Origin: Candidatus Uhrbacteria bacterium
GTDB taxonomy: Bacteria > Patescibacteriota > Patescibacteriia > UBA9934 > GWF2-40-263
Reading direction: 5' to 3'
Assembly: GCA_016844925.1 (NCBI GenBank)
Contig: JAERTI010000035.1
Location: forward strand, 4,949 to 68,948
Length of the DNA: 64,000 nucleotides
In this document: one piece after another, positions 5,861 to 42,268 of the stretch
Numbering within the stretch: position 1 is the stretch's first letter
Layout: each line of letters opens with the position of its first letter
The notes under the pieces: model-generated
What the model saw: only the letters and a program-made list of their open reading frames with translations
Database searches by the model: none
What the model was told of the DNA's origin: nothing
Position numbers and translations under genes: made by a program

Positions 5861-5886
5861 GTCCTCCGTGTTTACCTCCTACCCCC

Positions 5887-13189: not shown

Positions 13190-13235
13190 TTCAGCTCCTT
13201 GTCAGACCCCCACCCTGCCACCGAAGAGCCCAACC

Positions 13236-13280
13236 GTCAATCCACCAATCAAAAAACCGCCCCAAAAGGGACGATTTTTT
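13236..13280 (-). repeat. Terminator-promoter junction module, variant A (GTCAATCCaccaatcAAAAAACCG...hairpin...TTTTTT), downstream of hup
   Basis: It shares GTCAATCCA and AAAAACCG with the modules at 20469-20501 and 32332-32365. Read on the minus strand it is an imperfect hairpin plus TTTTTTGATTGGTGGATTGAC, which contains a TTGAC -35-like element. Confidence 0.5.
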
Positions 13281-13292
13281 GTACTAAACCTT

Positions 13293-13580
13293 TTATGCTT
13301 CCAGCAATGCGTCCTTTGCGGACTTTGCTACGCGGAACTTTACGACAGTCTTTGCAGGAATCTGGATGGACTCTCCTGTCATTGGGTTGCGTCCCATGCG
13401 GGCTGCACGCTCCTTCTTTACGAGCTTACCGAGCCCTGGAAGTGGGAACTCTCCGTTTGTGACAACTTCGCGCAATGCGAGTTCTACAAACGCCTCCCAT
13501 TTCTCTGTAGCTTCTTTCTTAGACAAACCGAGGAGCTCGCCGTAGGCAGCCATGAACTGGCTCTTAGTGAGTTTTGCCAT
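13293..13580 (-). CDS. hup: DNA-binding protein HU
   Basis: MAKLTKSQFMAAYGELLGLSKKEA...RMGRNPMTGESIQIPAKTVVKFRVAK is canonical HU/IHF. Confidence 0.9.
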   Translation of the reverse strand: MAKLTKSQFMAAYGELLGLSKKEATEKWEAFVELALREVVTNGEFPLPGLGKLVKKERAARMGRNPMTGESIQIPAKTVVKFRVAKSAKDALLEA

Positions 13581-13702
13581 AATATGTGGAAAACTTAAGT
13601 TTTACGCGGATTAGCTTAACATGGTGTCCATTTTTTGGGAATATCTGAACCTTTTGTCCATCCACAGGTACTTTCTCCTAAAACGCGATCAAAAAAACGC
13701 GG

Positions 13703-14092
13703 CTATACCGCGCTTCCAAGGCTCTCTCGTCCATGCATCCAATCCATCGCCTTGGCAATATCCTGCTGAACAATATCTGTCATTTCCTTTTCTCCTGGAT
13801 AAGGAACCAAATCCCTCATCTTCTGTACCAACTTCACCTTCATCCGCTTTCCATTCAATTCCATCTTTTGTCCAAGCAAATGCACCTCCATTTTTAAGTT
13901 ATATCCTGTACGCCCATCATTTATGCAAATCAATGACCCATAACGCTTCCCATCTACTTCTGCTTCACCAACGTATACTCCAAGTGCAGGAATAATCACC
14001 CCTTGCTCAACAGCAATATTCGCGGTCGGACAACCAAGCCGACGCGCCATTCCTTCCCCTGGGACTACGCGCCCTTGGAATGATAATTGCAT
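13703..14092 (-). CDS. Monofunctional riboflavin kinase (RibF C-terminal-domain type, no FAD-synthetase domain)
   Basis: GMARRLGCPTANI (GRGxxLGxPTAN) is followed by LGVYVGEAEVDGKRYGSL and MEVHLL blocks. It is only 129 aa. Confidence 0.7.
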   Translation of the reverse strand: MQLSFQGRVVPGEGMARRLGCPTANIAVEQGVIIPALGVYVGEAEVDGKRYGSLICINDGRTGYNLKMEVHLLGQKMELNGKRMKVKLVQKMRDLVPYPGEKEMTDIVQQDIAKAMDWMHGRESLGSAV

Positions 14093-14125
14093 ACAAATTT
14101 AGTTAAGCAGAGGACGCCCTGAGGG

Positions 14126-14566
14126 TCAACGCTTCAACCCTCGAACGTGTCCAAGGGCCTTTTTCACGATAGGTACCATGTCGCGATAACTCGACATTTT
14201 CTCCACCCGGCTCATGGGCACCCACTTCGCATCGTAAGCGTGCTGATCTGGATCTGGATAGAGCTTGCTCCCAGGAGGCGCCTCAAACAGATAGTAGTGA
14301 ATATCCTTATTGATCAACTGCCCCTTTTTCTCAAAACGGTCACGGAACCAAATATCAATTGCTCCCAAGTACTCCAAAAGTCGCACTTGTTCCAGCCCAA
14401 GCTCCTCAAGGGTCTCGCGCGCGGCAGCTTCCTCGATGTCCTCTCCCTTTTCAACATGTCCCTTCGGGAAGGTCCACTTTCCATAAGAGTCCTTCATCAT
14501 CGCAAAAGAAACACCGTTACCGGATTGACGATACACAACGCCACCAGCAGACAGCTCTCGCTGCAC
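14126..14566 (-). CDS. Nudix hydrolase
   Basis: The canonical Nudix box is GHVEKGEDIEEAAARETLEELG. The likely true start is the GTG at 14564-14566, preceded by aaggag plus 3 nt. The 33-aa basic N-terminal extension in the ORF track is an out-of-frame read of the ctp acidic tail. Confidence 0.75.
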   Translation of the reverse strand: MQRELSAGGVVYRQSGNGVSFAMMKDSYGKWTFPKGHVEKGEDIEEAAARETLEELGLEQVRLLEYLGAIDIWFRDRFEKKGQLINKDIHYYLFEAPPGSKLYPDPDQHAYDAKWVPMSRVEKMSSYRDMVPIVKKALGHVRGLKR

Positions 14567-14576
14567 CTTCTCCTTT

Positions 14577-15896
14577 CTACTCGGCGGCCTCTTCGCCTTC
14601 GTCTGCTTCTTCGGCCTGCTCGACGCCTTCGACGTCTTCTTCGGTTGTGTCTTCTTCTGGTTCATACGTTCCTAATAATAGAGCTATGGCCGCGTCCAAC
14701 TGAGGATCAATCTCGGCCTGATATTGTTCTAGCGTGTACTCGACAATGAAGTCGGGCTCGATTCCTGTCTCGTTGATGGTTCGACCGTTCGGTGTGTACC
14801 ACTCAGCCGTGGTGATCTTCACAGCCGATCCGTCAAAGATCTCCTGATAGTCCTGAACGGATCCCTTTCCAAACGTCTGTGTTCCAACCAACTGTCCGTA
14901 TCCATAATCTTGCAGAGCTCCTGCAACAATCTCTGAGGCCGATGCACTTCCTCCATTGACCAGCACGATCGTCGGCACATCTTCCAATCGAGGTGCCATA
15001 GCTCCATCAAAGGAAGTTGCTCCTTCTCGTGTTCGCTCAATAACCACGGTGTCATACCCCACCCAGAAGCTTGCAATATCAATCGCGGTTGTGAGAAGTC
15101 CTCCCGGGTTCGATCGTAGGTCAAGGATAATCCCTTCCACGTCCGCCGCAAGTGCCTCTTGAACAGCCTGATTCATGAGCGCGCTCGTATCGTGATTAAA
15201 CGTGGTGATCGAGATTTCCATGATGTTGTTCTCGTCTGTTTCCCACTGAACTGAATCGATCACAATCTTGTCACGCACAAGTGTGACATCTGTCAGTGTA
15301 TCAAGTCCGTTTCGAGAAATAGTGAGCACCACCTCTGTACCTCCTTCACCACGAATTAGACTCACAGCCTCTTCCACCGTCATGTCCATGGTTTCAATAC
15401 CATCAATCATCACAATCCAATCCCCTGGCAAAAGCCCCGCCTCATCTGCAGGCATCCCTGGCAACGGAGCCACGATCTGCAGACGATCTTCTTTAATCCC
15501 AATCTCTGCACCGATCCCCTCAAAACTCCCCTCCAAATCAGCCGTAAATTGTGCTGCATCCTCAGGATCAAAATAGACAGAGTACGGATCATCAAGACCG
15601 GCAACCATCCCCTTCAAGGCCCCATAGTACAAATCTAAATCGCTCACGGGCTGGCGGTAAAAATCCTCTTTGACAAAATTCCAAATCTCCCAAAAGTTCT
15701 CAAAATCTACATCCTCAGACAAATAAGCGGGGACATCTCCTTGTCCTGTGACATGCCCCTCTCCCTCTGGAACGATCTCTAGAGATCTACTCGTCTCCCC
15801 AACAAAAAAACCGATGCTAAATGCGATCGTCGTGGCAAGAATGAATAGGAGAATGGTAAAGGACCGTGGAAATTTCTGTTGCGTCATGGTAGTCAT
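14577..15896 (-). CDS. Carboxyl-terminal processing protease (S41, CtpA/Prc family) with PDZ domain
   Basis: An N-terminal TM anchor is present. The PDZ motif is GLLPGDWIVMIDG. The S41 catalytic region is LRSNPGGLL...GGSASASEIVAGALQD...TFGKGS. Confidence 0.85.
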   Translation of the reverse strand: MTTMTQQKFPRSFTILLFILATTIAFSIGFFVGETSRSLEIVPEGEGHVTGQGDVPAYLSEDVDFENFWEIWNFVKEDFYRQPVSDLDLYYGALKGMVAGLDDPYSVYFDPEDAAQFTADLEGSFEGIGAEIGIKEDRLQIVAPLPGMPADEAGLLPGDWIVMIDGIETMDMTVEEAVSLIRGEGGTEVVLTISRNGLDTLTDVTLVRDKIVIDSVQWETDENNIMEISITTFNHDTSALMNQAVQEALAADVEGIILDLRSNPGGLLTTAIDIASFWVGYDTVVIERTREGATSFDGAMAPRLEDVPTIVLVNGGSASASEIVAGALQDYGYGQLVGTQTFGKGSVQDYQEIFDGSAVKITTAEWYTPNGRTINETGIEPDFIVEYTLEQYQAEIDPQLDAAIALLLGTYEPEEDTTEEDVEGVEQAEEADEGEEAAE

Positions 15897-15944
15897 AGGT
15901 GGCTATAGGATACCCCATCTGAGAATGGTGTAAACTACCCCCAT

Positions 15945-17270
15945 ATGTCGAATCGATTGCGTCTCCTTCTTTTTCTGGCATTTCTGCTCATGTTTTTGAT
16001 TGCAGCACCTCTTTTGGTTCTTTATACGGCTGGCTATAGGTTCGATATGGGATCTGGACACATTGTCCATACGGCCGTCCTGAACATCTCGTCCATTCCG
16101 AGAAATGCCAACGTGTATATCGACGGCCAACCAGAGACAGACCGAACTCCCGCTGTTATAGAAACCGTTCTTCCTGGAGAGCATGAAATTCAATTGCAGA
16201 AAAAAGGATACATCACCTGGACACAAAACCTCTTCTTTAAAAGCCGGGAGGCCACCTTTGCCACCGACACGGTTCTCTTTCTTGATGAGAGCCCTGAACC
16301 CATCCAAGAACTTACCTCCATCCAATCCGCCATTAGTCCGACAGGCGACCTCTTGGTGTATCTCACTCAGGAAAGTTCTTGGTTAGAACTCTGGAGCACA
16401 ACAGGTTTTGAGGACTCGACTCGACTCCTCATGCGCCTGCCTCATGATGCCTCTAGTGAGTATTCAATCTCGTTTTCTTTAAGCGGTGACTACATCCTCC
16501 TTGCTCGAGAGGAAGGTTCCTTCTCTGAACTCACCATCGCCGACACGCAAAATGGCGACCTCGTGAGTCTCCCCATTCCCCTTTCAGATACTCTTGCATA
16601 TTGGTGGGACACACAACGTGATGACTTGCTCTACGTAGCCTTTACTGACACGTCCTACCAAATTGACCTGACAGCGAGTACGGAGACGCTTCTCATGGAC
16701 GACATGGAGCGCATGACTACGTTTGATGATCGAGACGTTCTTCTCACAGAACACAATAGCCGTGCTGTGCTCTCGTTCCTGGAGGATGACACTGCTTCCA
16801 TCATCACCTACCTCCCCCTGGGAACCTACTTCTTTGTCCCCGCACCAGCACCTCTCATCGGACTGTTTGATGCTCAGCACGAGAGACTCGTTCTCATCGA
16901 TTCTGAAAACCGCGATCAACCTATCCTGCTTAATGAAGCTGCCGCGCAATGGGAATGGAATGAGAACGATCAGCAACTTCTCTACTCCAGTGGCTTTGAC
17001 CTGCGTCTCTACGATCGTTATCAACACGAATCTGACACGCTTACTCGTCTAAGCGACCCCATCGAGCACCTGACATGGTACCCACAGGGCTCCGTTGTGC
17101 TCTACCAAGCCGCCGGAACAACGTATGCTTTAGCCGTTCAAGACCCACAACCTGAGCACTTGGCGCTCATCGAAGAAGCTCCGGGGCTCTTCTGGTTCGT
17201 AGACGACGCCCAGAACCTCCTTCTCCTCAGTGACGAAGGTGCTATGTGGAAACGACCTCTGCAAAAATAA
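15945..17270 (+). CDS. PEGA-domain membrane protein (the only large plus-strand gene in the first 27 kb)
   Basis: An N-terminal TM helix is followed by a PEGA-like block NANVYIDGQ...TPAVIETVLPGEHEIQLQKKGYITW. Confidence 0.55.
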   Translation: MSNRLRLLLFLAFLLMFLIAAPLLVLYTAGYRFDMGSGHIVHTAVLNISSIPRNANVYIDGQPETDRTPAVIETVLPGEHEIQLQKKGYITWTQNLFFKSREATFATDTVLFLDESPEPIQELTSIQSAISPTGDLLVYLTQESSWLELWSTTGFEDSTRLLMRLPHDASSEYSISFSLSGDYILLAREEGSFSELTIADTQNGDLVSLPIPLSDTLAYWWDTQRDDLLYVAFTDTSYQIDLTASTETLLMDDMERMTTFDDRDVLLTEHNSRAVLSFLEDDTASIITYLPLGTYFFVPAPAPLIGLFDAQHERLVLIDSENRDQPILLNEAAAQWEWNENDQQLLYSSGFDLRLYDRYQHESDTLTRLSDPIEHLTWYPQGSVVLYQAAGTTYALAVQDPQPEHLALIEEAPGLFWFVDDAQNLLLLSDEGAMWKRPLQK

Positions 17271-17304
17271 ACAGACCCTCATGGGCCTGTTTACCTTCTC
17301 TTGA

Positions 17305-18387
17305 TTACAGCTCGATAAAACTATTATCTCCCACAACCAGCCGATGGCTGGTTTTTGGATGGGAGCGTTTATGATCTACCAACGTCGCATTGACACCAAT
17401 CAGACTATTTACAATCCGTCTCGTTGTGTCGATCGTCGCTCCGTCAAACACGATGGAGTGCTCAACCTCACTATCTTTGATTGTCACATCGTCACCAATG
17501 GCCGTGTACGGTCCAATGAAACTCGATTCGATCGTGCAGTTTTTTCCGATCGCTACCGGCCCTCGAATCAAACAGTCACTCGCGATAGTCGACCCTTCAC
17601 CGATCGACACAAGCCCCTGGATTTGCGCATCAACGTGTGGCTTGCAATCGACACAGAATTCTCCACGCTCCATATCATCCATGATCAGAGCATTCCCCTC
17701 GATCAGCGCATCCGGAGTTCCTGTATCCTTCCACCAACCCGTAATCTCCTCGTGCCCAACCTTTCCATTGCGGATGTACCACGTAATGATGTCGGTGATC
17801 TCGTACTCTCCACGTGCGGAAGGCTCCGCTGTCTTGAACGCTTCAAAAAACTTTTCATCAAATAGATAGATCCCTGTCACAGCAAACGGTGATGGCGGAT
17901 CTTTTGGTTTCTCCACCGTGCGCTTAAGTGTGCCATCAGCATGGAACTCTGCCACACCAAAGCGGTGCGGGTCCTTTACCTCTGAGAGGGCGATCATGCA
18001 GTCAAGATCTTCATTCTGAAACCGGTCGACAAACTTGTTGATCGATCCAAGGATAATGTTGTCCCCTAAGAAGAACAGGAAGCGCTCACCCTTGAGGTGC
18101 TCCTCAGCATTGGCCACAACGTGCGCGAGCCCCTTGGCTCCACCGCGCTGCTCCAAGTACGTAATCTTGGCACCGAACTCTGACCCATCTCCCAGGGCGT
18201 CAGACATATACTTCACCTCGCCTGGATTGACGTTGATGATGATGTCTTTAATCCCTGCATCCGTCACCTTTTTTAGCACATACCAAAGCATGGGCTTATT
18301 GGCCATGGGGATCAAATGTTTGTTTCGTGTCCACGTAATGGGACGAAGGCGCGTCGCGCGGCCTCCAGCAGCAATAAGGGCTTTCAT
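17305..18387 (-). CDS. Sugar-1-phosphate nucleotidyltransferase, long form with C-terminal left-handed beta-helix (glucose-1-phosphate thymidylyltransferase-like)
   Basis: The start is MKALIAAGGRATRLRPIT (GGxGTRL). A GDNI motif and C-terminal hexapeptide repeats are present. It is adjacent to rmlB/rmlD-like genes. Confidence 0.75.
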   Translation of the reverse strand: MKALIAAGGRATRLRPITWTRNKHLIPMANKPMLWYVLKKVTDAGIKDIIINVNPGEVKYMSDALGDGSEFGAKITYLEQRGGAKGLAHVVANAEEHLKGERFLFFLGDNIILGSINKFVDRFQNEDLDCMIALSEVKDPHRFGVAEFHADGTLKRTVEKPKDPPSPFAVTGIYLFDEKFFEAFKTAEPSARGEYEITDIITWYIRNGKVGHEEITGWWKDTGTPDALIEGNALIMDDMERGEFCVDCKPHVDAQIQGLVSIGEGSTIASDCLIRGPVAIGKNCTIESSFIGPYTAIGDDVTIKDSEVEHSIVFDGATIDTTRRIVNSLIGVNATLVDHKRSHPKTSHRLVVGDNSFIEL

Positions 18388-18438
18388 ACGGCGATACTCT
18401 AGCTCGAGTACGAAATGGCGTCAAACACTTTAGATAAG

Positions 18439-18495
18439 AAAAAGCAGCCGTATTTCAGGCTGCACGTAGCTCAATCTGTGTTCCGGAACAGGCGC
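18439..18495 (-). repeat. Conserved ~55-bp multi-hairpin 3' element D1 (terminator plus palindromes) after the high-GC Nudix gene 18531-19391
   Basis: The sequence AAAAAGCAGCCGTATTTCAGGCTGCACGTAGCTCAATCTGTGTTCCGGAACAGGC matches 19473-19530 at about 45 of 52 positions. On the minus strand GCAGCCtgaaatacGGCTGC plus TTTTT is a rho-independent terminator. Further palindromes tgttccggaaca and ggcgcccgtaagcgcc follow. Confidence 0.65.
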
Positions 18496-18530
18496 CCGTA
18501 AGCGCCTCTACTGGATCCTAGATCAAACCG

Positions 18531-19391
18531 TCAGAGCGAGAGGCCACACAGGGCCAGGCCCGCCAGGGTGAGCGCGTCGTCGAAGGCCCCCTGAGCGTTG
18601 GCCTGCTTGAGCTGCTCCATGGTCATCAGCTGCGATCCGCCGATGATCTCCAGGTTCTCCGGGTTGGCCTCGCCGACCGACTCGATCTCAGCTTCCACCA
18701 CCCACTGCGGATGCAGGAAGAAGGTGGGATTGGCGTTCACGGTGCCGCGAAGCTTGGCGTCGACGATCTTGAAGCCACCCTCTTCGCCCGCCTCGATCTT
18801 GGCGGTCTTGAGAACGAACTCCTCGAGGTCCATGTCACCAGGGTCACCCTGGATCAGCCCACGCGGAGCCTCCCACTTCCACTCACCGGCCATGCTCAGG
18901 AGCTTGTCCCAGAGCTGTCCAGCGTCCAACAGCTTCATGTAGTCGTTGCCCGGGGGAATGAGTGCTCCCGCGAGCTCTGACTTCATCTCGAGCCCCTGCT
19001 CGGGAGTCAGAAGCGTCCAGCTGTGCTCGCCGACCTCGGTCATCTCGAGGATGTCCAGTTCTCCTTCTCCGGCATCCCGACGAACGACCGTGGGTCGACG
19101 CATGGTCATGCGGCGCTGCTGCACCACACCGATGCGATCCCCCATCCGGGCGATCACGATGGCACCGGGCTTCTCCACGATCAGCGGCTGGTCGTACAGC
19201 GGAATGACTTCTCCGCTCTCACGCTTCCAGAGCACGCCACGCAGCATCGCCCACCCCATCGGGTTGACGAGGCCACCCACCCCCACGCTCGTGGGCTTCC
19301 AGCCGACCACGGGCTTGTCCCACGGATTCGTCTGGGTGAAGTGTTCCTGGTGCAGGAGGGTGATTCCTCCGGTCAAATCATCTTGTGGCAT
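18531..19391 (-). CDS. Nudix hydrolase, ADP-ribose pyrophosphatase-like, high-GC foreign-type
   Basis: It has the ADPRase-like KPGAIVIARMGDRIGVVQQRR. The Nudix box is GDMDLEEFVLKTAKIEAGEEGGF (G-x5-E-x7-[I]E-x-x-EE-x-GF, with R replaced by I). GC3 is saturated and an aaggag SD precedes the start. Confidence 0.55.
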   Translation of the reverse strand: MPQDDLTGGITLLHQEHFTQTNPWDKPVVGWKPTSVGVGGLVNPMGWAMLRGVLWKRESGEVIPLYDQPLIVEKPGAIVIARMGDRIGVVQQRRMTMRRPTVVRRDAGEGELDILEMTEVGEHSWTLLTPEQGLEMKSELAGALIPPGNDYMKLLDAGQLWDKLLSMAGEWKWEAPRGLIQGDPGDMDLEEFVLKTAKIEAGEEGGFKIVDAKLRGTVNANPTFFLHPQWVVEAEIESVGEANPENLEIIGGSQLMTMEQLKQANAQGAFDDALTLAGLALCGLSL

Positions 19392-19472
19392 TAACCAATC
19401 TCCTTTCGGGTCTGCCCCAATGGCAGATGCGGAAATTAGTCTAAAAAGCCGATGTTGTCAATGGTTTCAATA

Positions 19473-19530
19473 AAAAAGCAGCCGTATTTCAGGCTGCGCG
19501 TAAGACAATCTGCGTTCCGAAATAGACCCG
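19473..19530 (-). repeat. Conserved 3' element D2, a copy of D1, after the high-GC Nudix-fold gene 19566-20420
   Basis: The sequence is AAAAAGCAGCCGTATTTCAGGCTGCGCGTAAGACAATCTGCGTTCCGAAATAGAC. The same terminator hairpin is followed by an atagac...gtctat hairpin. Downstream TTTTGGATCAAAGATC resembles the TGGAT motif of the junction modules. Confidence 0.65.
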
Positions 19531-19565
19531 ATTTCCCCTGTCTATTTTGGATCAAAGATCATCTT

Positions 19566-20402
19566 CTAGTAGACGTACTCGTGGTAGCCGGTGCGACCAA
19601 GCTCCTTGCGAGCCTTCAGAATCTTCTCGAACTTCTGCGCGAGTTCGCGCACGTCACTCTCTCCGACGTGGTAGTTGCACGCATGCAGCGGTCCGCTCCG
19701 ACGATGATCGTCCGTGGACCAGTCGTACGTATGGCCGTACATGAGCCGAAACTCAAAGGTCCATCCCCCCCGCTTGCGACGGCTCTTTCGCTTGAGCCGA
19801 TTGACGATGGGACGCAGGTCCGTCATCAGGACCCCCCTGACCATCGGCGGCATGGAGCACCAGTCCTCCACCGTGTCCGAGACGACGATGTTGCCATCGG
19901 ACATGAGTTGAAGAGAAAGGCTGTGAATGTCCCAGTTGTGCGAGACACTTTCGACAACCGTCTGGGCCGCCAAAGGAATCTCACGGGGCGGTTGGATGTA
20001 GCCGTACACCTGGGCGCGAAGGATCGCTTCTGCATCGGGGTAGCCGCCCAGTTCTCCGTTGAGAACTAGCTTGTAGAAGACATCCACGGTCAGCCATGCA
20101 CCAGCTTGGGTGTCAGGGCGCCGCTCCACATCCGTAAGGATGAAGAAGTGATGCTTCACGTGACCCTGGGTCAAGTAGCAAACCGAAATGGCCCGACTGG
20201 TCTCCATCAGAATCACACCACACTGTTCCTTGGCCACCCTGAGAGCCGTGTTGCCTAGGAGCTCATCGGCCTCAGGCGCTCCAGCCGCCACCCGTGGATG
20301 CGGATTCAGCTTTGTGGAGGCAAGCACGATCTTGCCGTCACGGGTGAGTGGGAGCACGATCGCCATCGGCTCGATGGGGGTTTTCTTGTTGGTATCTGTC
20401 AT
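19566..20402 (-). CDS. Nudix-fold protein with degenerate Nudix box, high-GC foreign-type
   Basis: The ATG is at 20400-20402 (MTDTNKK). The ORF track extends to a GTG at 20420. The block is IVLPLTRDGKIVLASTKLNPHPRVAAGAPEADELLGNTALRVAKEQCGVIL, with box GAPEADELLGNTALRVAKEQCGV. Conserved G, E7, R15, E19 and G22 are kept, but REU is replaced by RVA and EE by EQ. A ~110-aa C-terminal extension has no recognised family. Confidence 0.5.
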   Translation of the reverse strand: MTDTNKKTPIEPMAIVLPLTRDGKIVLASTKLNPHPRVAAGAPEADELLGNTALRVAKEQCGVILMETSRAISVCYLTQGHVKHHFFILTDVERRPDTQAGAWLTVDVFYKLVLNGELGGYPDAEAILRAQVYGYIQPPREIPLAAQTVVESVSHNWDIHSLSLQLMSDGNIVVSDTVEDWCSMPPMVRGVLMTDLRPIVNRLKRKSRRKRGGWTFEFRLMYGHTYDWSTDDHRRSGPLHACNYHVGESDVRELAQKFEKILKARKELGRTGYHEYVY

Positions 20403-20468
20403 CACATCCCTTTCTGGCACGATGTGCGTTTGTTTTTATCGATGCCAGGAGAATAACTTAGTTTTTTT

Positions 20469-20501
20469 CGGTTTGTTCGTCAATCCAAAAACCAGGCGTT
20501 C
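20469..20501 (-). repeat. Terminator-promoter junction module, variant B (GTCAATCCAAAAACCAGGCGTTCGCCTGGTTTT)
   Basis: It matches 32332-32365 at about 29 of 32 positions. On the minus strand it is the hairpin AAAACCAGGCGAACGCCTGGTTTTT followed by GGATTGACG, a TTGACG -35 element. A TAAGTT -10-like element lies 17 nt later, about 40 nt ahead of the high-GC gene's ATG. Confidence 0.6.
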
Positions 20502-20516
20502 GCCTGGTTTTATTGC

Positions 20517-21362
20517 TTATTCTGCGTTCTTTGCTTCAGCGTACTTCTCGAGGGTATCTCTCAGTGCCTCTCCGATAGGCCGCATGGTAATCCCCACCTT
20601 AGCGAGGTTCTCGTTCGCCAAGAAGTTATTTGATCGCCCCTTGGTTGCAAGCCCCTGTGCGACCAACTCTTCATTGCTAATCCACTCATTTGTGTGAGAC
20701 GGATCAACCAGCTCCTCATAGAGCCCGATCAACTCTCGGTGTCGCATGGTTCCCGGGTTGCTCACGTGGAAGATTCCTGCCGCGCGTTTCTCCAGAAGCT
20801 GATGGAACACGTCAATCATGTCCTCAACAATCGTCACGGAGTTCTCCACGTCGATCACCTTTGGATAGCTCGCGAGCTTGTTGATCAAGTTTCCAGGCGC
20901 CGGCTTCCAGTCGATCGGCATGCGGATGCGGGCGATCCCCACATTCGGAAGTGTCGAGAGAACGAGATCCGCAGCCCACTTTGTGCGTGAGTACACCGGT
21001 TGTGGGTTCCCCATGTCATCTTCACGCCACGCCTTGTCTTCATGCGCAGAGTCGCCGTAGAAGATACAACCCGACCCCATGTGCAAGAGGTAGACCCCAC
21101 GCTGCTGACATGCGTCAGCAAGCACGATCGGTTCGAGCGTGTTGCCACGAATCGTCTCGAGCTGATGATCCTCACACCAGTCTACGTTCGGCACACCCTT
21201 AATGCCCGCAGCATTGAATACGACGTCAGGACTATGTGCATCTATCTCAGCAAGCGCCTCATCTACGGTAGAAATAATCTTTTCAGAGAGAACAGCCTCA
21301 TCCCCCCAAGCCTCCTTACAACGCCGACCCATATAGCCAGCTCCGATGATCAAAATCTTCAT
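20517..21362 (-). CDS. NAD(P)-dependent sugar epimerase/reductase, RmlD-like (dTDP-4-dehydrorhamnose reductase family)
   Basis: The gene was trimmed to MKILIIGAGYMGRRC (ATG 21360-21362, 1 nt after the rmlB stop). It has a Rossmann fold and YSRTK (YxxxK). The listed 39-aa N-terminal extension is unlikely. Confidence 0.6.
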   Translation of the reverse strand: MKILIIGAGYMGRRCKEAWGDEAVLSEKIISTVDEALAEIDAHSPDVVFNAAGIKGVPNVDWCEDHQLETIRGNTLEPIVLADACQQRGVYLLHMGSGCIFYGDSAHEDKAWREDDMGNPQPVYSRTKWAADLVLSTLPNVGIARIRMPIDWKPAPGNLINKLASYPKVIDVENSVTIVEDMIDVFHQLLEKRAAGIFHVSNPGTMRHRELIGLYEELVDPSHTNEWISNEELVAQGLATKGRSNNFLANENLAKVGITMRPIGEALRDTLEKYAEAKNAE

Positions 21363-21363
21363 G

Positions 21364-22365
21364 CTATCGATCTTTATATTGCTTATCGTAATACTCCTTG
21401 TACGCACCTGTCCGGCACCCGTCGACCCAGTCCGTGTTGGTCTTGTACCAATCAACAGTCTTGGCGAGCCCTTCCTCAAAACTGGTCAGCGGCTCCCAAC
21501 CACATTCCGTGCGAAGCTTGGTTGAATTGATAGCGTAGCGGCGGTCATGTCCAGGACGATCCTTTACGTACTCAATCGCATCCTCCCCACGGCCCGTGAG
21601 CTCAAGCAACTTTCGCGTCACATCCATGTTTGGCACGCGGTACCCGGTTCCGATGTTGTACGTCTCCCCCAAGCGCCCTTTCTCTGCAATGGCCTCAATG
21701 GCGCGACAGTGGTCCTCGGTGAAGATCCATTCGCGAATCTGCTGGCCATCGCCGTAGACTGGCACGGTCTTTCCCTCAAGGAGGTTCATGGTGAACAGCG
21801 GGATCAACTTCTCTGGGAACTGATACGGACCGTAGAAGTTGCATGAGTGCGTAATAATCACCGGCGTGCCGTAGGTCACTGCATAGGAGTGACAAAGGTG
21901 ATCACCTGCCGCCTTCGATGCGCTGTAGGGTGACCGTGGCTCAAATTTATCTTCCTCAGAACTCTCCCCTTCCATGACGGCTCCGTACACCTCGTCAGTA
22001 GAGATATGCACCATGCGAGGAATCTCGTGCTTGCGCACCGCCTCAAGAAGGTTATAGACACCCTGAATGTTCGTGTCGATAAACGCCTTCGGCTCAAGAA
22101 TCGAACGGTCTACGTGCGTCTCCGCCGCATAGTTGATTATGAGGTCCATACCCTGTACCACCTTATCGACAGCATCGGCATCAGCAATCGATCCTTTCAC
22201 AAACGTGTATCGAGGATCATCCTGAATATCAGACAAACTCGTCAGGTTTCCTGCGTAGGTCAGATTGTCAAAGTTCACAATCTCCACATCCTCACGTGTG
22301 CGAAGCAGATAGTGGATCATATTCGACCCCATGAATCCCGCACCTCCGGTAATCAATATTTTCAT
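21364..22365 (-). CDS. rmlB: dTDP-glucose 4,6-dehydratase
   Basis: MKILITGGAGFMGSNMIHYLL (GxxGxxG) is followed by ISTDEVYG, PYSASKAAGDHL and HVDRSI-type motifs typical of RmlB. Confidence 0.85.
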   Translation of the reverse strand: MKILITGGAGFMGSNMIHYLLRTREDVEIVNFDNLTYAGNLTSLSDIQDDPRYTFVKGSIADADAVDKVVQGMDLIINYAAETHVDRSILEPKAFIDTNIQGVYNLLEAVRKHEIPRMVHISTDEVYGAVMEGESSEEDKFEPRSPYSASKAAGDHLCHSYAVTYGTPVIITHSCNFYGPYQFPEKLIPLFTMNLLEGKTVPVYGDGQQIREWIFTEDHCRAIEAIAEKGRLGETYNIGTGYRVPNMDVTRKLLELTGRGEDAIEYVKDRPGHDRRYAINSTKLRTECGWEPLTSFEEGLAKTVDWYKTNTDWVDGCRTGAYKEYYDKQYKDR

Positions 22366-23371: not shown

Positions 23372-23372
23372 A

Positions 23373-23735
23373 TTAGTCTTTGATTAATACGTAGATAATA
23401 GACGGAATGAAGAGCCCCATAAGGGCCAAAAGCAGTCTGTAACCATCGAGTCCATCAGATGTGCTCCAGGTTATCACAGCAAGGATAATCCCTAAAGATA
23501 GGGCCACAAGGGACTCAAGCCATGGCCGCTGCGTGTACTGATCCACGACGGCTGCCCACCAAACACCAAAGACAATCGCTGAGAGCAGGAAGATGTGCAC
23601 GGAGAAGTACCGAGAAACAAACCCTGGCTGGAGAGCATCCAGGAGCCAGAACAAGATGTACGACGTCACGGCAACGAGGAACCCTGTGCGTGTGATGGTC
23701 TCTATGGCAGAAAAAGATTTTGTCTTCCAGATCAT
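23373..23735 (-). CDS. Small 4-TM membrane protein, hypothetical
   Basis: It is hydrophobic throughout and overlaps the upstream gene by 4 nt (operon coupling). Confidence 0.4.
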   Translation of the reverse strand: MIWKTKSFSAIETITRTGFLVAVTSYILFWLLDALQPGFVSRYFSVHIFLLSAIVFGVWWAAVVDQYTQRPWLESLVALSLGIILAVITWSTSDGLDGYRLLLALMGLFIPSIIYVLIKD

Positions 23736-26757: not shown

Positions 26758-27325
26758 AGGTAAACAGACTGATTATGGCAAACACCACAGCGAGCGAGAG
26801 CGTGCCGACACTGATTGGAATAAACAGGTCGAATCCTGCCCACAGAGCGATGAGCAAAAGTAATACTCCTGTGACCTGGAGAAACATCTTCGTTTTTCCA
26901 AATACATTCGCTGAAACAATTTTCCCGTTGTGCTTACGAATGACTCCTCCTGCGATAAGGAGGGCTTCAACAAGCACAATCAGCAGTCCAAAGAACAAGT
27001 TCACATGCTGCACGACAACCAACAGAACTACAGACCCAATGAGGATCTTATCGGCCAGAGGGTCATAGAAGGTTCCCCACTCGGTAATCTGCTTGCGAAT
27101 CCTTGCGGTCGATCCATCCAAGGCATCCGTAAACGCGACAAATAAAAATAACGGTATGCCTACCGAAAATTGCTGTACATAGAGTAACCAAAGCACCACT
27201 GGTGTCATCACGATCCTGAACATGGTAATCATGTTCGGTGTAACAAATGGGGGCACCAGCGGGACAAATGTGTAGCGCATGATGTGATCGTGTGGAAACA
27301 GCTTTGCCGGATCGCGCTGAGACAT
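26747..27325 (-). CDS. CDP-alcohol phosphatidyltransferase family protein (PgsA-like)
   Basis: The gene was trimmed to the ATG at 27323-27325 (MSQRDPAKL). The family motif is DALDGSTARIRKQITEWGTFYDPLADK (D-G-x2-A-R-x8-G-x3-D-x3-D). Confidence 0.7.
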   Translation of the reverse strand: MSQRDPAKLFPHDHIMRYTFVPLVPPFVTPNMITMFRIVMTPVVLWLLYVQQFSVGIPLFLFVAFTDALDGSTARIRKQITEWGTFYDPLADKILIGSVVLLVVVQHVNLFFGLLIVLVEALLIAGGVIRKHNGKIVSANVFGKTKMFLQVTGVLLLLIALWAGFDLFIPISVGTLSLAVVFAIISLFTYGL

Positions 27326-27344
27326 AGTAAACTTACTGAAGATT

Positions 27345-29477
27345 ATGCTCCGTCGACTCCATGCTACCATCTTTGCAGTGCTGTTCCTAGCGCTTTTTGT
27401 GGCCAACACCTTCCTCATTGGGAGCGTGTTTTTTGGTGGTGTTTTGCTCGCTTTGTACCTAGGAGCGTTTGGCTGGGAGCTTGGCGGCATCATCACAAAG
27501 AGCGAAAAGGCTGTTCTGCGGTGGTGGCTTGGAATCTGGGTGCTCTTGAGTATTCTCCTAACGGTTTTGACTGCCAGCTACTACCTTTGGGCGATTACCG
27601 CCACAATGGTGCATATTGTCATCCTGCTCACACCCCCTATTCTGCTCGTTGCCGCACGTAAAACAGCTCACCGATCGCTCTTTGCCCATGCTCACAATCT
27701 CTGGAAAGAAAAGCGTCACCGTGTTCCTAATACGGTCTGGATCGTGGCCGCGGGGTCACTCCTACTCCTGAGCCTCCTGTTCTCCGTCTTGGGCGCCCAC
27801 CCTGTCACAGATGCGGTCCGCTCCGTCTGGGAACGACTCCCTGAGAGTGTCTTCCTTCTCCTGTTGTTATCGACAGCACTCGTCTTCGCCTTGCTCTGGC
27901 GCGGACGAGAACGCGCACTCTCGCTCGTCTTGCTCTCAGTACTGCTGTTTGCTGCCATCAGCGTCGCGGCGATTGTCTTCCCGCTGGGTTTTGGATTCGA
28001 CTCGTTCATCCACAAAGCAACCGAGGCCCACTTGGCGGAGTTCGGTACCATCACCCCTAAGCCTTTCTACTACATTGGTCAGTACGCTCTGGTCCTGCTC
28101 GCCCATCACGGCTTTTTGATTCCCATCGATCTTGCCGATACATTTCTTGTCCCCGTCCTGACAGCCCTGCTACTCCCCATGGCTTGGTACTTTGCTGCGG
28201 CACACATCGTCCGCAAAAAGTCCGTCGCCATGCTCACGCTCTCAGGCATGTTCCTACTCCCGCTCTCAAGCTTTATCGTGACTACCCCTCAAGGCCTGGC
28301 AAACCTCTGGACGCTCCTGCTCATCCTCGCGTCGATTCCCTACCTGCTTGAACACGAGCACCCACGCCTGCGCGTGCTCGCCCTCGGCGCCATTGCCACG
28401 CTCTTGATCCACCCCATCGCCGGCATTCCAACCCTCCTCTATTTCATGTTCCTGGCGACAGATCCTTCGCGCACAAATCCCCGCACCCCCACAACCAATC
28501 GCATTGTCCGCATTCTGCTCATTAGCTTCGCTTCCATCGTGCTCCCACTGAGCTTTGCCGTGAACGCCTTCATCAGCGGACAGTCGCTCGGTATTGATCT
28601 GGCTGCCCTCAACCCCCTCACCTGGTTTTCTAACCTGAACCTGACCGTCTTTTTCGAGAGTCGATTCGATCCACTCCTAGACATCGTCTACCTCTACGGC
28701 CTCAACGCCATGCTCGTCCTTGTTATCTTGGCGACCTTTGCTTGGTTTGAGTACCGCAAAGAACTCTCACGACGCTTCCGCGCCATCCTCCTGATGGTCA
28801 TGGCACTTGCCATCAACTACTTCATCATGTCAGGTGCGCTCGAGTTCACCTTTCTCATCGATTACGAGCGCGCCAACTACGCAGCACGCCTTCTCCCTCT
28901 CATAGGGCTCTTCCTGACCCCATACGTCATCCTCGGCCTGGGTCACCTGTTCATGAACATCAAAACCCAACCCGTCATCCTCCGCGGCGGAGCACTCGTC
29001 CTCCTCGTCGCGATCGCCACATCCAGCGTCTACATGGCCTATCCCCGACGTGATGCCTATGAGACCAGTCGAGGATTTAACGTGAGCCAAGCAGACATCG
29101 ATGCCGTGCACCTCGTTGAGAGCCTCGCAGGTCCGCAGCCGTACCTCGCTCTGGCGAACCAGTCCGTGAGCGCGGCGGCGATTTCCGAGATTGGCTTCCA
29201 GTATTTCGAGGATCTCTTCTTCTACCCCATCCCTACCGGCGGCGCTCTCTACGAGGTCTTCCTACAAATGAACGAACAACCCTCTCGTGAAACCGCCAAG
29301 CAAGCCCTTAATCTCGTGCCACAGCACGGCGATGTAAACCGACTCTACTTCCTGGTCAACAACTACTGGTGGCAAGCCCCTCGCATCATCGAGACCGCGA
29401 AGACCACAGCCGACGACTGGCGCTCCGTGGGCGAAGAGGGGCAGGTGTACGTGTTTGAGTATCTATTCGACTATTAA
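27345..29477 (+). CDS. Large polytopic membrane protein (~710 aa), paralog of 56059-58125; possible GT-C/YfhO-like transferase
   Basis: It has more than 15 TM segments. Blocks shared with 56059-58125 include GFGFDSFIHKATEAHLAEFG vs GFGFDPFIHRAAETALVHNG, and YYIGQYALVLLAHHGFLIPID vs LYLGQYALIAGLNLLTGIPV. The C-terminal soluble domains also match (YWWQAPRIIETAK..VYVFEY vs DNWPEAGRIRAQ..VVIYEY). Confidence 0.55.
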   Translation: MLRRLHATIFAVLFLALFVANTFLIGSVFFGGVLLALYLGAFGWELGGIITKSEKAVLRWWLGIWVLLSILLTVLTASYYLWAITATMVHIVILLTPPILLVAARKTAHRSLFAHAHNLWKEKRHRVPNTVWIVAAGSLLLLSLLFSVLGAHPVTDAVRSVWERLPESVFLLLLLSTALVFALLWRGRERALSLVLLSVLLFAAISVAAIVFPLGFGFDSFIHKATEAHLAEFGTITPKPFYYIGQYALVLLAHHGFLIPIDLADTFLVPVLTALLLPMAWYFAAAHIVRKKSVAMLTLSGMFLLPLSSFIVTTPQGLANLWTLLLILASIPYLLEHEHPRLRVLALGAIATLLIHPIAGIPTLLYFMFLATDPSRTNPRTPTTNRIVRILLISFASIVLPLSFAVNAFISGQSLGIDLAALNPLTWFSNLNLTVFFESRFDPLLDIVYLYGLNAMLVLVILATFAWFEYRKELSRRFRAILLMVMALAINYFIMSGALEFTFLIDYERANYAARLLPLIGLFLTPYVILGLGHLFMNIKTQPVILRGGALVLLVAIATSSVYMAYPRRDAYETSRGFNVSQADIDAVHLVESLAGPQPYLALANQSVSAAAISEIGFQYFEDLFFYPIPTGGALYEVFLQMNEQPSRETAKQALNLVPQHGDVNRLYFLVNNYWWQAPRIIETAKTTADDWRSVGEEGQVYVFEYLFDY

Positions 29478-29479
29478 CA

Positions 29480-29540
29480 AACGACCTTAAGAGCAAGGTC
29501 GTTTTTTGTATCCAAGAAAAAAGACGCTCGATGAGCGTCA
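29480..29540. terminator. Back-to-back terminators between convergent 27345-29477 (+) and 29573-30346 (-)
   Basis: The plus-strand hairpin acgacctt..aaggtcgt plus T6 is at 29481-29507. The minus-strand hairpin gacgctc-atc-gagcgtc plus T6 is at 29515-29540. Confidence 0.6.
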
Positions 29541-29572
29541 GGGTGTTCACCCTCGTGTTGTTCGTTTGAACT

Positions 29573-30346
29573 TCAGCCAGCCACCAGCGTCGGCTCGATG
29601 CCGCGCCGGGAAAACCACTGCGTCCGCTCGGCGTAGAGCGTGAGCAGGAGGTTCATGGGGCTGATGCCGCCGGTCTCCCAGGCCTGGGTGAAGGCATCAG
29701 ACACCGGGGCGGTCTCTCCGGTCAAGATGGCGTGCGGACGCCCGGCTCCGACGATGGAACCTGTGGTCAAACGCTCACCACCTCGAATCAGATCGATCAG
29801 ACGCTTCTGCCCAACCGGACCACCCTCGTCCCAGTGCCGCAGCAGCGACGTCACCCAGAAGTTGGGGTCCAGAAGGGTCCTGTCGAGCTCCGTCTCATCG
29901 AACTCACAGAGGAAGAACGACGCGCGCACGAGACAGGCTCCGCCCATCCGCGCTCGCGTGAAGTTGCTGCGCTTGATGCGCGCCTTCCACAGCACGGCGG
30001 AGCTGAGATCCGCACCCACGAAGGACACATCTCGATTCACCACCACGCCGGACAGGTTGGCTTCGGATAGATCCGCGCCATCGAAGCGTGCGTCCATCAT
30101 CTGGGCACCTGACAAATCGATCCCCGCGAGATTGGATCCATGCAGGTTCGTTCCCATCAACGACACACCTCGCATCTGCGCCCCGTCGAAGTCGAACCCG
30201 TGCAGGTCCATCTCGTCGAGGTTCACGCCGTCTAGGTTTCCTCGAACCCGAAGCTCCTCAGGCTTCCTTCCCTTTCCGTTGTTCGTACGCCACTCCACCA
30301 AGACCTCAGGCCCAGCCGAAATGGCACTCATAGCACTCAAATGCAT
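29573..30346 (-). CDS. Pentapeptide-repeat protein (MfpA/Qnr-like right-handed quadrilateral beta-helix), high-GC foreign-type
   Basis: The gene was trimmed to the ATG at 30344-30346 (MHLSAMSAIS), with an aaaggaga SD 6 nt upstream. It carries tandem A(D/N)LxG pentapeptides (NLDGVNLDEMDLHGFDFDGAQMRGVSLMGTNLHGSNLAGIDLSGAQMMDARFDGADLSEANLSG). GC3 is saturated. Confidence 0.7.
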   Translation of the reverse strand: MHLSAMSAISAGPEVLVEWRTNNGKGRKPEELRVRGNLDGVNLDEMDLHGFDFDGAQMRGVSLMGTNLHGSNLAGIDLSGAQMMDARFDGADLSEANLSGVVVNRDVSFVGADLSSAVLWKARIKRSNFTRARMGGACLVRASFFLCEFDETELDRTLLDPNFWVTSLLRHWDEGGPVGQKRLIDLIRGGERLTTGSIVGAGRPHAILTGETAPVSDAFTQAWETGGISPMNLLLTLYAERTQWFSRRGIEPTLVAG

Positions 30347-30471
30347 GCGAATGTCTCCTTTACAGACCTTCGCCAAACCAAGTGCGTCCCCACGGCAAGA
30401 CTAGAGAACGGGGGTTAAAAAGTCAAAAGAAAAGAGAGACTCGTGGAGTCTCTCGACCGAGGCAGGCTCGG

Positions 30472-32272
30472 TCAGTCGCGAATGGTGAGCTCGCTTTGCA
30501 GACGCTCGAGCTCGGTGAAGAGCGGACTGCCTACACGTAGTTCGTCACGTGTTCCTTGTGCCACCACACGCCCCTCGTCCATCACCACGATGTGGTCGGC
30601 GCGCTGGATGGTGGAAAACCGGTGAGCAATGACGATCGTCGTGCGCCCCTGACGAAGCTCCTCAAGCGCGGCTTGAATCCGCGCCTCGGAAATGACGTCT
30701 AGGTTGCTGGTTGCCTCATCGAAGATGAGCAGGCGTGGATCCCGCAGGATCGCACGAGCGATGCCGATGCGCTGACGCTCCCCTCCAGAGAGGTCAAGGC
30801 CCTTCTCACCGACAATGGTGTCGTACCCATCAGGCTTGCGCTCGATGAACTCGTGCGCGCCAGCCAGATCGGCGGCAGCGCGGATCTCTGCCTCGCTCGC
30901 ATCCGGACGCCCGTAGGCGATGTTGTCTCGGATGGAGATGGAGAAGAGCTCCACATTCTGCGGCACGATGCCGATCTGACGCCGCCAGTCCTCGAGGTTG
31001 AGAACCCTCAGATCGTCTCCGTCGACCTCAATGGCGCCGCTGTGAACATCGTAACCACGCAGCAAAAGCGTCACGAGGGTGGACTTCCCCGATCCGGAGG
31101 GTCCAACAAGTGCCACCATCTCTCCAGAGTGAGCCGTGAAGCTCACATCCTTCACACCCGTTCCGTTGCCGTCGTAGGAGAACGATACTTGATCGAAGAC
31201 GACATCACCCTCCAACCTATCCATCCTGATCGCTGTGGGGAGCGATACCACCTCGGGCTGCTTGTCCAGCAGGTCCATGAGGTGCATGAGTGCTTCCTGG
31301 TTGCGCCCCAGCTCCATCCACTCTCGTGTCACAGTGCGACACGAACGAATGAGCCGGTCGTTCAGCTGCAGGAGCATCACCATGGTTCCCAGGGTGAGGG
31401 TGTTTGCCTCAAGGCCCCAGAGCCCGATCAAGATCACCAACGCTCCTGAGATGTTGGCCATCCCGTCACGGAGATATCCCCCAAGCATGACGCGTGCCCA
31501 CTGCACCCACTCCACCGATCGAATCTTCGCAAGAATCTCCGAAATGCGGCCACGCTCGTGTTGCTCGCGACCGAACGCTTGGACCGTTGCGATGTTGCCG
31601 AGCGCCTCGTACCCAATGGTGCTTGACCGTTGGTAGAGCTTTTCCATTCTCTGCCGGTAGGCTTTCAGCGACCTGAAGTCGTAGGCAACCCACACGCCGG
31701 TGATCACCCCTAGGACCAAACTCAGCACCCCGACACGCCACTCAAGGATCAGAAGAGCAACTGAGAAGACAGGGATGGTGAGCACCTCAGGAAGAAGCCT
31801 ACCAAACACGCGGTCGGTTAGCTGACTCGCGGCGTTCACACCACGGTCGATCTTGGTGATCTGCTTGCTGGTGTTCTCCTGGACGTGGTGCCCGATGGAG
31901 AGCTTGAGCAAGTGACTCATGGTGAGCACTGGCATGCGCTCGCTCATGAGCAAGTACAGCCGGAGCCAGGTTCGCTGGTTGAGTACTCCCACCGTGCTGG
32001 AGGCGACCTCCACCAACACTTTGGCCAGCAAGATGACACCAGCGAGCCACCACATGGTGTTCGTCTCCGGCATCCATCCGCGAAGAGCCTCGACGGTCTT
32101 GACCTCAGCTCCCATCTGCGGCATGCCCCAGACGTTGATGAGGTCGAAGACCAGCTTGTTGATGTACGGGGCGGCGAGCCCCATCACGGTCACCATAGCC
32201 ATCAGGCCCATGGACCAGATGATGTCACGTTTGAAAGGACGAATGAGCGCCCAGTACCTTCTCCAGAAGTTC
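30472..32272 (-). CDS. ABC transporter, fused permease-ATPase exporter (MsbA/MDR type), high-GC foreign-type
   Basis: The ATG is at 32270-32272, preceded by ggagg. A 6-TM domain is followed by an NBD with Walker A GPSGSGKST, the signature LSGGERQRIGIARA and Walker B LLIFDEATSNLD. GC3 is saturated. Confidence 0.85.
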
Positions 32273-32331
32273 ATGTCGACCTCCAATTTGTTCTAGGCGA
32301 ACGCAGGAAAGTACCTAATTTTGGGGATTTT

Positions 32332-32365
32332 GTCAATCCAAAAACCGAGCGTTCGCTCGGTTTTT
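32332..32365 (-). repeat. Terminator-promoter junction module, variant C (GTCAATCCAAAAACCGAGCGTTCGCTCGGTTTTT)
   Basis: It is a near-copy of 20469-20501. On the minus strand the hairpin AAAAACCGAGCGAACGCTCGGTTTTT is followed by GGATTGACA (-35 TTGACA). After 17 nt comes TACTTT (-10-like), then GGAGG and the ATG of the ABC exporter. Confidence 0.6.
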
Positions 32366-42240: not shown

Positions 42241-42268
42241 ATACAGTAGCGGCATTGTATCGATCTTC

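Follow-up and report, generated by a model that had tools for sequence, protein, structure and literature searches.

Integron cassettes are recognised by their attC sites, the integrase IntI and the Pc promoter, and O-antigen and capsule loci are variable surface-polysaccharide loci whose content is swapped by homologous recombination in the conserved DNA on either side. Hotspots of gene turnover also occur between core genes, most of them without recognisable mobile-element genes (Oliveira et al. 2017, PMC5635113), and one preprint describes coupled promoters and terminators as widespread in bacteria (bioRxiv 10.64898/2026.08.19.745784). Here we analyse two closely similar terminator-promoter junctions in a 64,000-nt stretch of a Candidatus Uhrbacteria genome (contig JAERTI010000035.1, positions 4,949 to 68,948; hereafter the window). 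The window is a surface-glycan locus with rml genes, GT2 and GT4 glycosyltransferases, a Wzy_C-like ligase and subtilases. In our judgement the module shared by the two sites is probably an ordinary compact terminator-to-promoter junction, lying at the edges of gene slots that vary among relatives.

In both cases an intrinsic terminator abuts a sigma-70 promoter, as in the coupled pairs described elsewhere: a GC-rich hairpin, with an A-run on one side and a U-run on the other, is directly followed by TTGACA, 17 nt and TAnnTT. The differences are that two junctions of one genome (with predicted activity) are homologous at the level of orthologues, and that one of them is invariant over 43 nt across genomes about 28% apart in DNA. 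The locus is likewise reminiscent of turnover hotspots, having conserved flanking pairs (RmlD/RmlA, and GT4/a 710-aa gene) and, in the slot of one relative (L144), an insertion sequence (IS) transposase, but its slots hold one to three genes, the cargo shares regulatory flanks and several cargo genes are old residents. As in integrons, there are tandem single-gene units with unrelated coding sequences, similar hairpin 3' ends and an order and content that differ between relatives. Unlike integrons, however, the locus yielded no integrase, there are two or three units, the shared 3' element is an untranslated region (UTR) plus terminator rather than attC, and in place of a common Pc promoter every unit comes with a separate TTGAC-17-TAnnnT promoter and a separate terminator. 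Given these separate promoters and the lack of IntI and of an attC site, we rejected an integron reading. O-antigen and capsule loci share with the window the strain-level variation of a glycan locus, but here, in place of whole serotype cassettes, it is an ABC exporter and small genes, unknown or NUDIX-like, that vary, and the apparent homology tracts are regulatory and some 40-100 nt long.

All genes relevant to the junctions lie on the minus strand (Table 1). At copy 1, the 3' end of an RmlD-like gene reads AAAACCAGGCGAACGCCTGG-TTTTT-GGATTGACG, then 17 nt and TAAGTT, with the ATG of a gene that we call X 52 nt further on; at copy 2, the 3' end of a GT4 gene reads AAAACCGAGCGAACGCTCGG-TTTTT-GGATTGACA, 17 nt, TACTTT, a GGAGG Shine-Dalgarno sequence and the ATG (32274) of an ABC exporter. 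Both copies have the predicted form of an intrinsic terminator that passes, at its T-run, straight into a sigma-70 promoter, TTGAC(A/G)-17-TAnnTT, and the copy 1 promoter is predicted to drive X in this genome. A preliminary description of this DNA had placed a minus-strand hairpin after each of three upstream genes (RmlD-like, GT4 and hup), and this is borne out: the hairpins start 5, 3 and 11 nt past the respective stops (20517, 32368 and 13293), fold at -16.2, -20.3 and -22.3 kcal/mol and end in U5-U6, with z-scores that range from -4.2 to -5.5 over the three (copy 1, -4.2; copy 2, -5.5). It had also described the T-run as leading into a -35 element with a -10 hexamer 17 nt later, which fits copies 1 and 2 and fails at the third, looser copy behind hup, where CAGGGT stands in the place of the -10.

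Conservation was followed in relatives whose RmlD is 95% (L135, L136), 85% (L137, L138) or 84% (L139, L140) identical to that of the window, in the contig JABMNZ010000025.1 (which supplies both L014 and L145; GT4 79% identical), and in L141, L142, L143, L144 and L146 (GT4 69-78% identical; RmlD 80% for L146), while three further contigs (Joint Genome Institute sample 3300072015) were compared by gene lists alone. Proteins 66-80% identical to the RmlD-like and GT4 proteins carry the labels Candidatus Uhrbacteria, Parcubacteria or Patescibacteria in their sources. All relatives have an orthologous RmlD junction. Its stem is kept in L135, L137 and L139, as are TTGACA, the 17-nt distance and TA(C/A/G)(T/G)TT, within a spacer of unrelated sequence, and the loop drifts among orthologues (GAAC, AAAA, TGGAAAG), as does the GGA of the module (GGA, TGA, GGG). 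Across hairpins of the RmlD and GT4 types, two stem pairs are altered on both sides with 100% pairing (four distinct sequences).

The same layout recurs outside the lineage. Among the matches listed from unrelated genomes and metagenome contigs, a hairpin abutting TTTTTGGATTGAC was followed by TAnnnT at exactly 17 nt in six of nine cases, compared with 7/102 of the chance hits lacking a hairpin that served as the control set (again among the matches listed). Because this layout is found elsewhere and GGA drifts, GGA does not appear to be a special motif, and the arrangement would be that of a generic bacterial terminator-promoter junction. The GT4-ABC junction is kept more strictly. In L014 its hairpin is identical and both hexamers and their spacing are as in copy 2, and the window and L014 share 43 consecutive identical bases there, the loop and AAAATC included, within flanking GT4 and ABC DNA that is about 72% identical (0.72^43, or about 7e-7 per position). 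On this comparison the GT4-ABC junction appears strongly constrained, somewhat beyond what a terminator and a -35 alone predict.

An alignment of copies 1 and 2 covers 36 nt at 86% identity (repeat family D17 of the window repeat search). The preliminary description was right about the near-identical pair, though it set copy 1 10 nt too low. Their common 15-mer GTCAATCCAAAAACC occurs exactly twice in the window, whereas the 8-mer GTCAATCC by itself is not enriched (5 observed vs 2.84 expected). In a self-BLAST of the window the pair scored 43.7 bits (E 5e-4) and ranked third among non-self hits, a score equalled by 0 of 40 dinucleotide shuffles. Since the two arms of a hairpin depend on each other and A/T runs are unspecific, we added a comparison with peers, using 70-nt promoter-junction segments from the window and its relatives. 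The alignment score of copies 1 and 2 was 27, against a mean of 8.5 (standard deviation, sd, 3.4) over 171 segment pairs, a 5-sd outlier exceeded by one pair only, a truly orthologous one at 29. The similarity therefore survives the alignment statistics that had been proposed as its refutation test, and copies 1 and 2 are no closer to each other than true orthologous junctions are. The form of copy 1 found in L135 (...GGATTGACAAATTC...GTACTTTCC) scores 32 against copy 2, above the window's own copy 1, with additional matches at GACAAA and, at the -10, GTACTTTCC. The likeness of the two junctions spans terminator and promoter, about 59 nt. The two stem pairs at which they differ are compensatory (A-U/G-C for G-C/A-U), and every cell pairs. 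We read this as probable shared ancestry, through duplication or gene conversion, atop strong functional constraint.

The alternative that copies 1 and 2 are unrelated, and alike purely through the constraints on terminators and promoters, draws on the junctions of the form hairpin-T5-GGATTGAC-17 nt-TAnnnT in unrelated taxa, on the TTGACAAA and GG-TAnTTT features that promoters of the lineage share and on the failure of orthologues to keep GGA (TGA or GGG instead). It keeps some probability in view of the RmlD orthologues, whose own hairpins vary from CCAGGC to CCGAGG (with CCAGG as a further stem, and loops GAAC, AAAA and GAAA). The copies, however, share loop, closing pair, GGA and register, and the outlying score at true-orthologue level and the extra matches of the L135 version are not what such convergence predicts. 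We regard it as unlikely.

Both intervals bordered by a copy are hotspots in the sense that conserved genes flank a content that differs among relatives. Between RmlD and RmlA, the window carries X followed by a second gene, Y; L135, L136, L139 and L140 carry Y alone; L137 and L138 carry Y and a gene for a 554-aa HNH_repeat protein; and L145 carries a gene for a 183-aa PaaX_M protein, Y and a homologue of X (X'). A DUF6498 gene on the opposite strand occupies this slot in a 686-kb contig, and a transposase fragment with a low-GC gene occupies it in L146. Between GT4 and the 710-aa gene, ABC is followed by a pentapeptide gene in the window and in L135 (where the GT4 end lies beyond the locus) and by a 193-aa gene in L014. 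The same slot holds a 129/133-aa gene on the opposite strand in L137, L138 and L142, a 242-aa gene in L143, an IS DDE transposase in L144, a 147-aa gene in the contig of P0124 and nothing (27 nt) in the 686-kb contig. The GT4 hairpin of L142 has the stem of copy 2 with an AAAA loop (CCGAGC AAAA GCUCGG) and T6, and runs on into the terminator of the opposite-strand gene, with neither GGATTGAC nor an ABC gene behind it. Because this hairpin stands without them, the ABC unit begins exactly after the U-run. The GT4 terminators of L137, L141 and L143 are unrelated to copy 2.

The clearest difference between close relatives is a segment of 1033 nt that contains X and is absent from the 95%-identical L135 and L136, with 11 nt in its place in L135 and flanks that are 96-97% identical to L135. 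In order, it comprises the spacer and -10 of the X promoter, the X leader, X, a 3'UTR and terminator of the Y type, and a new -35 with 13 nt of spacer for Y. Its left breakpoint falls right after the module -35 (TTGAC-RAA), so that the -35 of copy 1 is common to the ancestral Y promoter, and its right breakpoint falls about 4 nt ahead of the -10 of the Y promoter. Since both breakpoints lie inside a promoter spacer, X would combine the resident -35 with a spacer and -10 of its own, and Y would combine a -35 and 13 nt from the X segment with the -10 it already had; the 17-nt spacing is intact in each promoter. The spacer found in L135 matches neither window spacer, so the indel does not appear to be a simple recombination product or single crossover of the sequences in hand. 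On these grounds we rejected both a simple insertion of X with target duplication and a simple deletion in L135 between two promoters.

X and Y, which are unrelated, end in about 100 nt of homologous 3'UTR and terminator (repeat family D8), and the bases after D8 at X (TTGAAACCATTGACA) resemble the Y-RmlA junction of L139 (TTGAAAACATTGACG). In L145 the terminators after Y and X' (around 5830-5870 and 6950-6990) are about 98% identical to each other and about 80% identical to those of the window. Such near-identical flanks suggest concerted evolution or a recent duplication of the flank.

The preliminary description held that the gene after each junction is always a high-GC foreign one. The composition stands: the GC content at third codon positions (GC3) reaches 0.73 in X, 0.75 in ABC and 0.78 in the 123-aa gene behind hup, compared with about 0.5 in their neighbours. 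The recent foreign origin mostly fails, since Y, the 123-aa gene, a 161-aa gene and ABC have orthologues, equally rich in GC3, in relatives 15-25% diverged in protein. Y lies directly behind the RmlD module in L135, L136, L137, L139 and L140 and is in the slot of L145 too; its orthologues are 98.6%, 73%, 53% and 53% identical, with GC3 of 0.69-0.82 throughout. L135, L137 and L139 have the 123-aa and 161-aa genes in synteny and with high GC3. In L145 the 123-aa gene is degraded with its terminator still there, which marks a loss and not a site still awaiting insertion. ABC and its L014 orthologue share 75% identity, close to the values of the neighbouring genes (GT4 79%, 710-aa gene 82%), and the gene is GC3-rich in both. 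In relatives, Y, the 123-aa gene and ABC keep their synteny and have diverged to a similar degree, so they do not look like recent imports, and most genes behind the junctions are probably long-term residents.

X is the sole strain-specific gene among X, Y, ABC and the 123-aa and 161-aa genes. It matched itself alone among 5.8e9 protein clusters, and its NUDIX match is below threshold (E 0.002). A sensitive search with X returned four distant homologues, the best of which, X', is 43% identical over 170 aa and lies in the RmlD-RmlA slot of the L014/L145 genome, after Y and not before it. The idea that X and Y are paralogues was dropped, as BLASTP and hhalign found nothing.

Three small monocistronic genes of the window, at 10197-10682 (161 aa), 12818-13189 (123 aa) and 18531-19391 (Y), have GC3 of 0.78-0.93, where typical genes have about 0.5, and their syntenic orthologues in L135, L137 and L139 have 0.65-0.93. 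The anomaly is a lasting one and not a fading trace of transfer. One testable idea for the cause of the GC3 of these genes is GC-biased gene conversion, an available hypothesis for GC excess (PMC4450053), acting where recombination is frequent.

In the reading we favour, a bidirectional-looking intrinsic terminator would end the upstream operon, that of the RmlD-like or the GT4 gene, and three bases after its U-run a -35 (TTGACA/G) would open a consensus sigma-70 promoter (17 nt, TAnnTT) from which the next, autonomous transcription unit starts. GC3-rich, self-contained units, each with a predicted promoter and terminator of its own, are gained, lost and reordered between relatives, and the repeated regulatory flanks (the terminator/-35 module and the Y-type 3'UTR/terminator, some 40-100 nt) could offer short homology to host recombination, with no need for a dedicated integration system. 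We infer this use of the flanks because promoter breakpoints in register, and homogenised flanks around unrelated coding sequences, suggest it. Insertions would be seen at junctions largely because only those between units are tolerated, and accessory genes would be bracketed by junctions because here they are autonomous transcription units.

A stronger form of the same idea is that the small GC3-rich accessory genes of Uhrbacteria are self-insulated cassettes. Gene conversion would keep their flanks similar, and these would serve host recombination as portable homology arms, in register with the -35 and -10, as a recombinase-independent functional analogue of an integron. We think it doubtful that this goes so far. 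If it were true, unrelated genes could be inserted, deleted and reordered with every product keeping a working promoter and terminator, and frequent recombination could explain the GC3 excess by GC-biased gene conversion.

Several points weigh against the junction reading and the shared ancestry we attach to it. Much of the likeness between copies 1 and 2 consists of generic features (A-run, CC...GG stem, T-run, TTGAC), and the best dinucleotide shuffle reached 42.8 bits, close to the 43.7 of the pair. The RmlD hairpin of L146 reads CCGAGG GAAA CCUCGG, an A/G swap that has therefore also arisen within one orthologous site. The L135 spacer has no match in either window spacer, the reading does not account for the lasting high GC3 of the cassette genes, and the terminator and promoter activities are predicted from sequence and conservation.

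The preliminary description itself preferred a portable terminator/promoter cassette or a recombination target for incoming foreign DNA, which would make the junctions expression slots like integrons or attachment sites. Slot content does differ among relatives, the ABC cassette starts at the very end of the T-run, behind a hairpin that L142 has on its own, the X indel begins directly past the module -35, the genes downstream are compositionally atypical, and the promoter of the 554-aa cassette in L137 (TTGACAAAATC ... TAGTTTTT.T.GTTCGC) resembles that of ABC. The notion of variable slots is partly borne out, together with breakpoints in the spacer, but the targeting is not supported. Y, the 123-aa gene and ABC are no recent imports, genes like X live in the same slot elsewhere, and other cargo of the same slots lacks the module (the opposite-strand 129-, 133- and 242-aa genes, the IS transposase, the 183-aa gene and the DUF6498 gene). 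Roughly 50 scanned window proteins contained no recombinase, transposase or integrase domain, the window yielded no attC-like site or core, and a search of 9-36 kb against Rfam at E <= 1 returned nothing relevant. Moreover, an insertion is tolerated only between transcription units, which would produce the association even with no targeting mechanism. We consider this cassette or target reading improbable.

A shared operator, at which a regulator binding GGATTGACAAAATCC (at the -35) and GCGAACGC/GCGTTCGC would co-regulate the cassettes, is compatible with an ordinary junction. It could account for the 43 of 43 identical positions against L014, where the loop and flanks are not needed by a terminator and -35 alone, and inverted repeats are visible at the -35 and at the hairpin. 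But the palindromes are short, and both copy 1 and L135 have them in imperfect form; there is no adjacent regulator gene, and GGA and the loop vary in RmlD orthologues, all of which makes co-regulation quite improbable. As to the elements themselves, GGATTGACAAAATCC (window 32322-32336) forms a 5+5 inverted repeat that overlies the ABC promoter's -35, and GCGTTCGC, in the ABC leader (32292-32306), is complementary to GCGAACGC, which tops the terminator hairpin; each may be an operator or chance. The CGTTCGC of the ABC leader is kept in L014.

In about 150 kb of related loci the motif was found at orthologous sites alone and at no new site, contrary to the portable, dispersed element that had been proposed. 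A scan of 185,579 species genomes for GTCAATCCAAAAACC-N8-20-GGTTTT gave 10 hits, with L014 the sole true relative; a metagenome scan with a looser pattern gave almost entirely chance matches, with no contig of the lineage among the matches listed, and viral contigs gave 0 motif hits. A small mobile hairpin repeat carrying terminator- and promoter-like sequence, of the repetitive extragenic palindromic (REP) or miniature inverted-repeat transposable element (MITE) kind, would suit the palindromic core and two similar copies 11.8 kb apart, but with two copies only in 64 kb, none at new sites in the roughly 150 kb of related loci, both sites orthologously conserved, no terminal inverted repeats or target duplications and this census, it is barely credible and was rejected on that evidence.

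Table 1. Positions in the window of the junctions, the X segment and the genes and repeats associated with them.
Feature	Position	Strand	Details
Copy 1, whole repeat unit	20476-20511	-	minus-strand junction; core motif from 20479 (20479-20511)
Copy 1, terminator hairpin of RmlD-like gene (predicted)	20488..20511	-	AAAACCAGGC-GAAC-GCCTGGUUUU, running into fifth U
Copy 1, promoter (predicted)	20455..20483	-	-35 TTGACG (20483..20478), 17-nt spacer, -10 TAAGTT (20460..20455)
Copy 2, whole repeat unit	32329-32364	-	minus-strand junction; GTCAATCC at 32332
Copy 2, terminator hairpin of GT4 gene (predicted)	32341..32364	-	AAAACCGAGC-GAAC-GCUCGGUUUU, running into fifth U
Copy 2, promoter of ABC exporter (predicted)	32308..32336	-	-35 TTGACA (32336..32331), 17 nt, -10 TACTTT (32313..32308)
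RmlD-like 3,5-epimerase/4-reductase gene, upstream of copy 1 terminator	20517..21377	-	Pfam RmlD_sub_bind
GT4 glycosyltransferase gene, upstream of copy 2 terminator	32368..33570	-	stop at 32368
X segment	19443..20475	-	1033 nt, absent from L135/L136; 11 nt there in L135
Hybrid Y promoter (predicted)	19433..19461	-	-35 TTGACA (19461..19456) from X segment, -10 TAATTT (19438..19433) ancestral Y
D8 repeat after X	19473..19525	-	3'UTR and terminator GCAGCCUGAAAUACGGCUGC-U6
D8 repeat after Y	18439..18491	-	87% identical over 53 nt to the copy after X
Gene X	19566..20402	-	278 aa, GC3 0.73, weak NUDIX match
Gene Y	18531..19391	-	286 aa, GC3 0.82, conserved occupant of RmlD-RmlA slot
ABC exporter	30472..32274	-	600 aa, GC3 0.75, behind copy 2
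Loose copy 3, hup terminator (predicted)	13235..13281	-	CGUCCC-UUUU-GGGGCG, U6, GATTGGT, GGATTGACG; CAGGGT at -10 place
Unrelated terminator-promoter junction, ABC to pentapeptide gene	30398..30454	-	hairpin 30454..30434, TTGACT, 17 nt, TAGTCT

The junction behind hup (13293-13580), which is followed by the 123-aa open reading frame, had been listed as a looser third copy (13236-13280) and does not belong with the other two. Its hairpin (CGTCCC/GGGGCG) is unlike theirs, seven extra bases separate the T-run from GGATTGAC, no -10 is present at 17 nt, and its score of 11-12 against copies 1 and 2 is at background. In L137 and L139, TTGAC lies 30-60 nt from the hup terminator and is preceded by GTA or CGG. 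Copy 3 is merely an analogous terminator with a TTGAC nearby, a junction of the same kind and no copy of the module. Other minus-strand terminators followed by TTGAC-17-TAnnnT were found in the window at 18424, 19461 and 30426.

Promoters of the lineage show some further likeness, TTGACAAA(A/T)C ... (A)TTTTT(T)GG right before TAnnnT, at 49374-49408 and 54544-54578 of the window and at 11809 of L137, which hints at a lineage-specific extended promoter consensus. RmlA looks leaderless (window 18385-18424), with a -10 TAGAGT (18401..18396) 8 nt ahead of the ATG and no Shine-Dalgarno sequence, an arrangement kept in L135, L139 and L145.

Some occupants of the slots stand out in their own right. 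The 554-aa protein inserted between Y and RmlA (L137 11809-13700, and also in L138) matches the homing-endonuclease-associated HNH_repeat (E 9e-8); GTTCGCG(T) follows the -10 of both its promoter and that of RmlA in L137, possibly as a target duplication, and its promoter and leader resemble those of the ABC gene. In L146 (10880-11720; Uhrbacteria CG_4_9_14_3_um_filter_50_9), the RmlD terminator is followed by what by eye resembles a fragment of an IS200/RAYT-type transposase (IEYPGALYHVMSRGN) and then by a low-GC gene (GC3 0.25), a different cargo in the same slot. Elsewhere in the window, repeat family D5 is accounted for by a tandem pair of subtilase paralogues (705 and 700 aa; 38103-42282) that carry FG-GAP repeats, and relatives keep the pair. 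A very GC-rich open reading frame (GC 0.68, GC3 0.97) with repeats of 198-nt period runs off the window end (61897-64000, minus strand) and matches Pfam Cu-binding_MopE in nine stretches (E 1e-81).

To our knowledge, almost nothing is known experimentally about transcription signals in the candidate phyla radiation. The junctions described here provide a clean, phylogenetically footprinted example of a predicted Uhrbacteria promoter (TTGACA, 17 nt, TAnnTT) together with an intrinsic terminator. The genes behind them carry a warning for calls of foreign islands based on GC content, in that compositionally atypical genes need not be recent imports. If the flanks do serve as recombination substrates, tiny genomes without obvious mobile elements would be able to shuffle their accessory genes while leaving expression unbroken.

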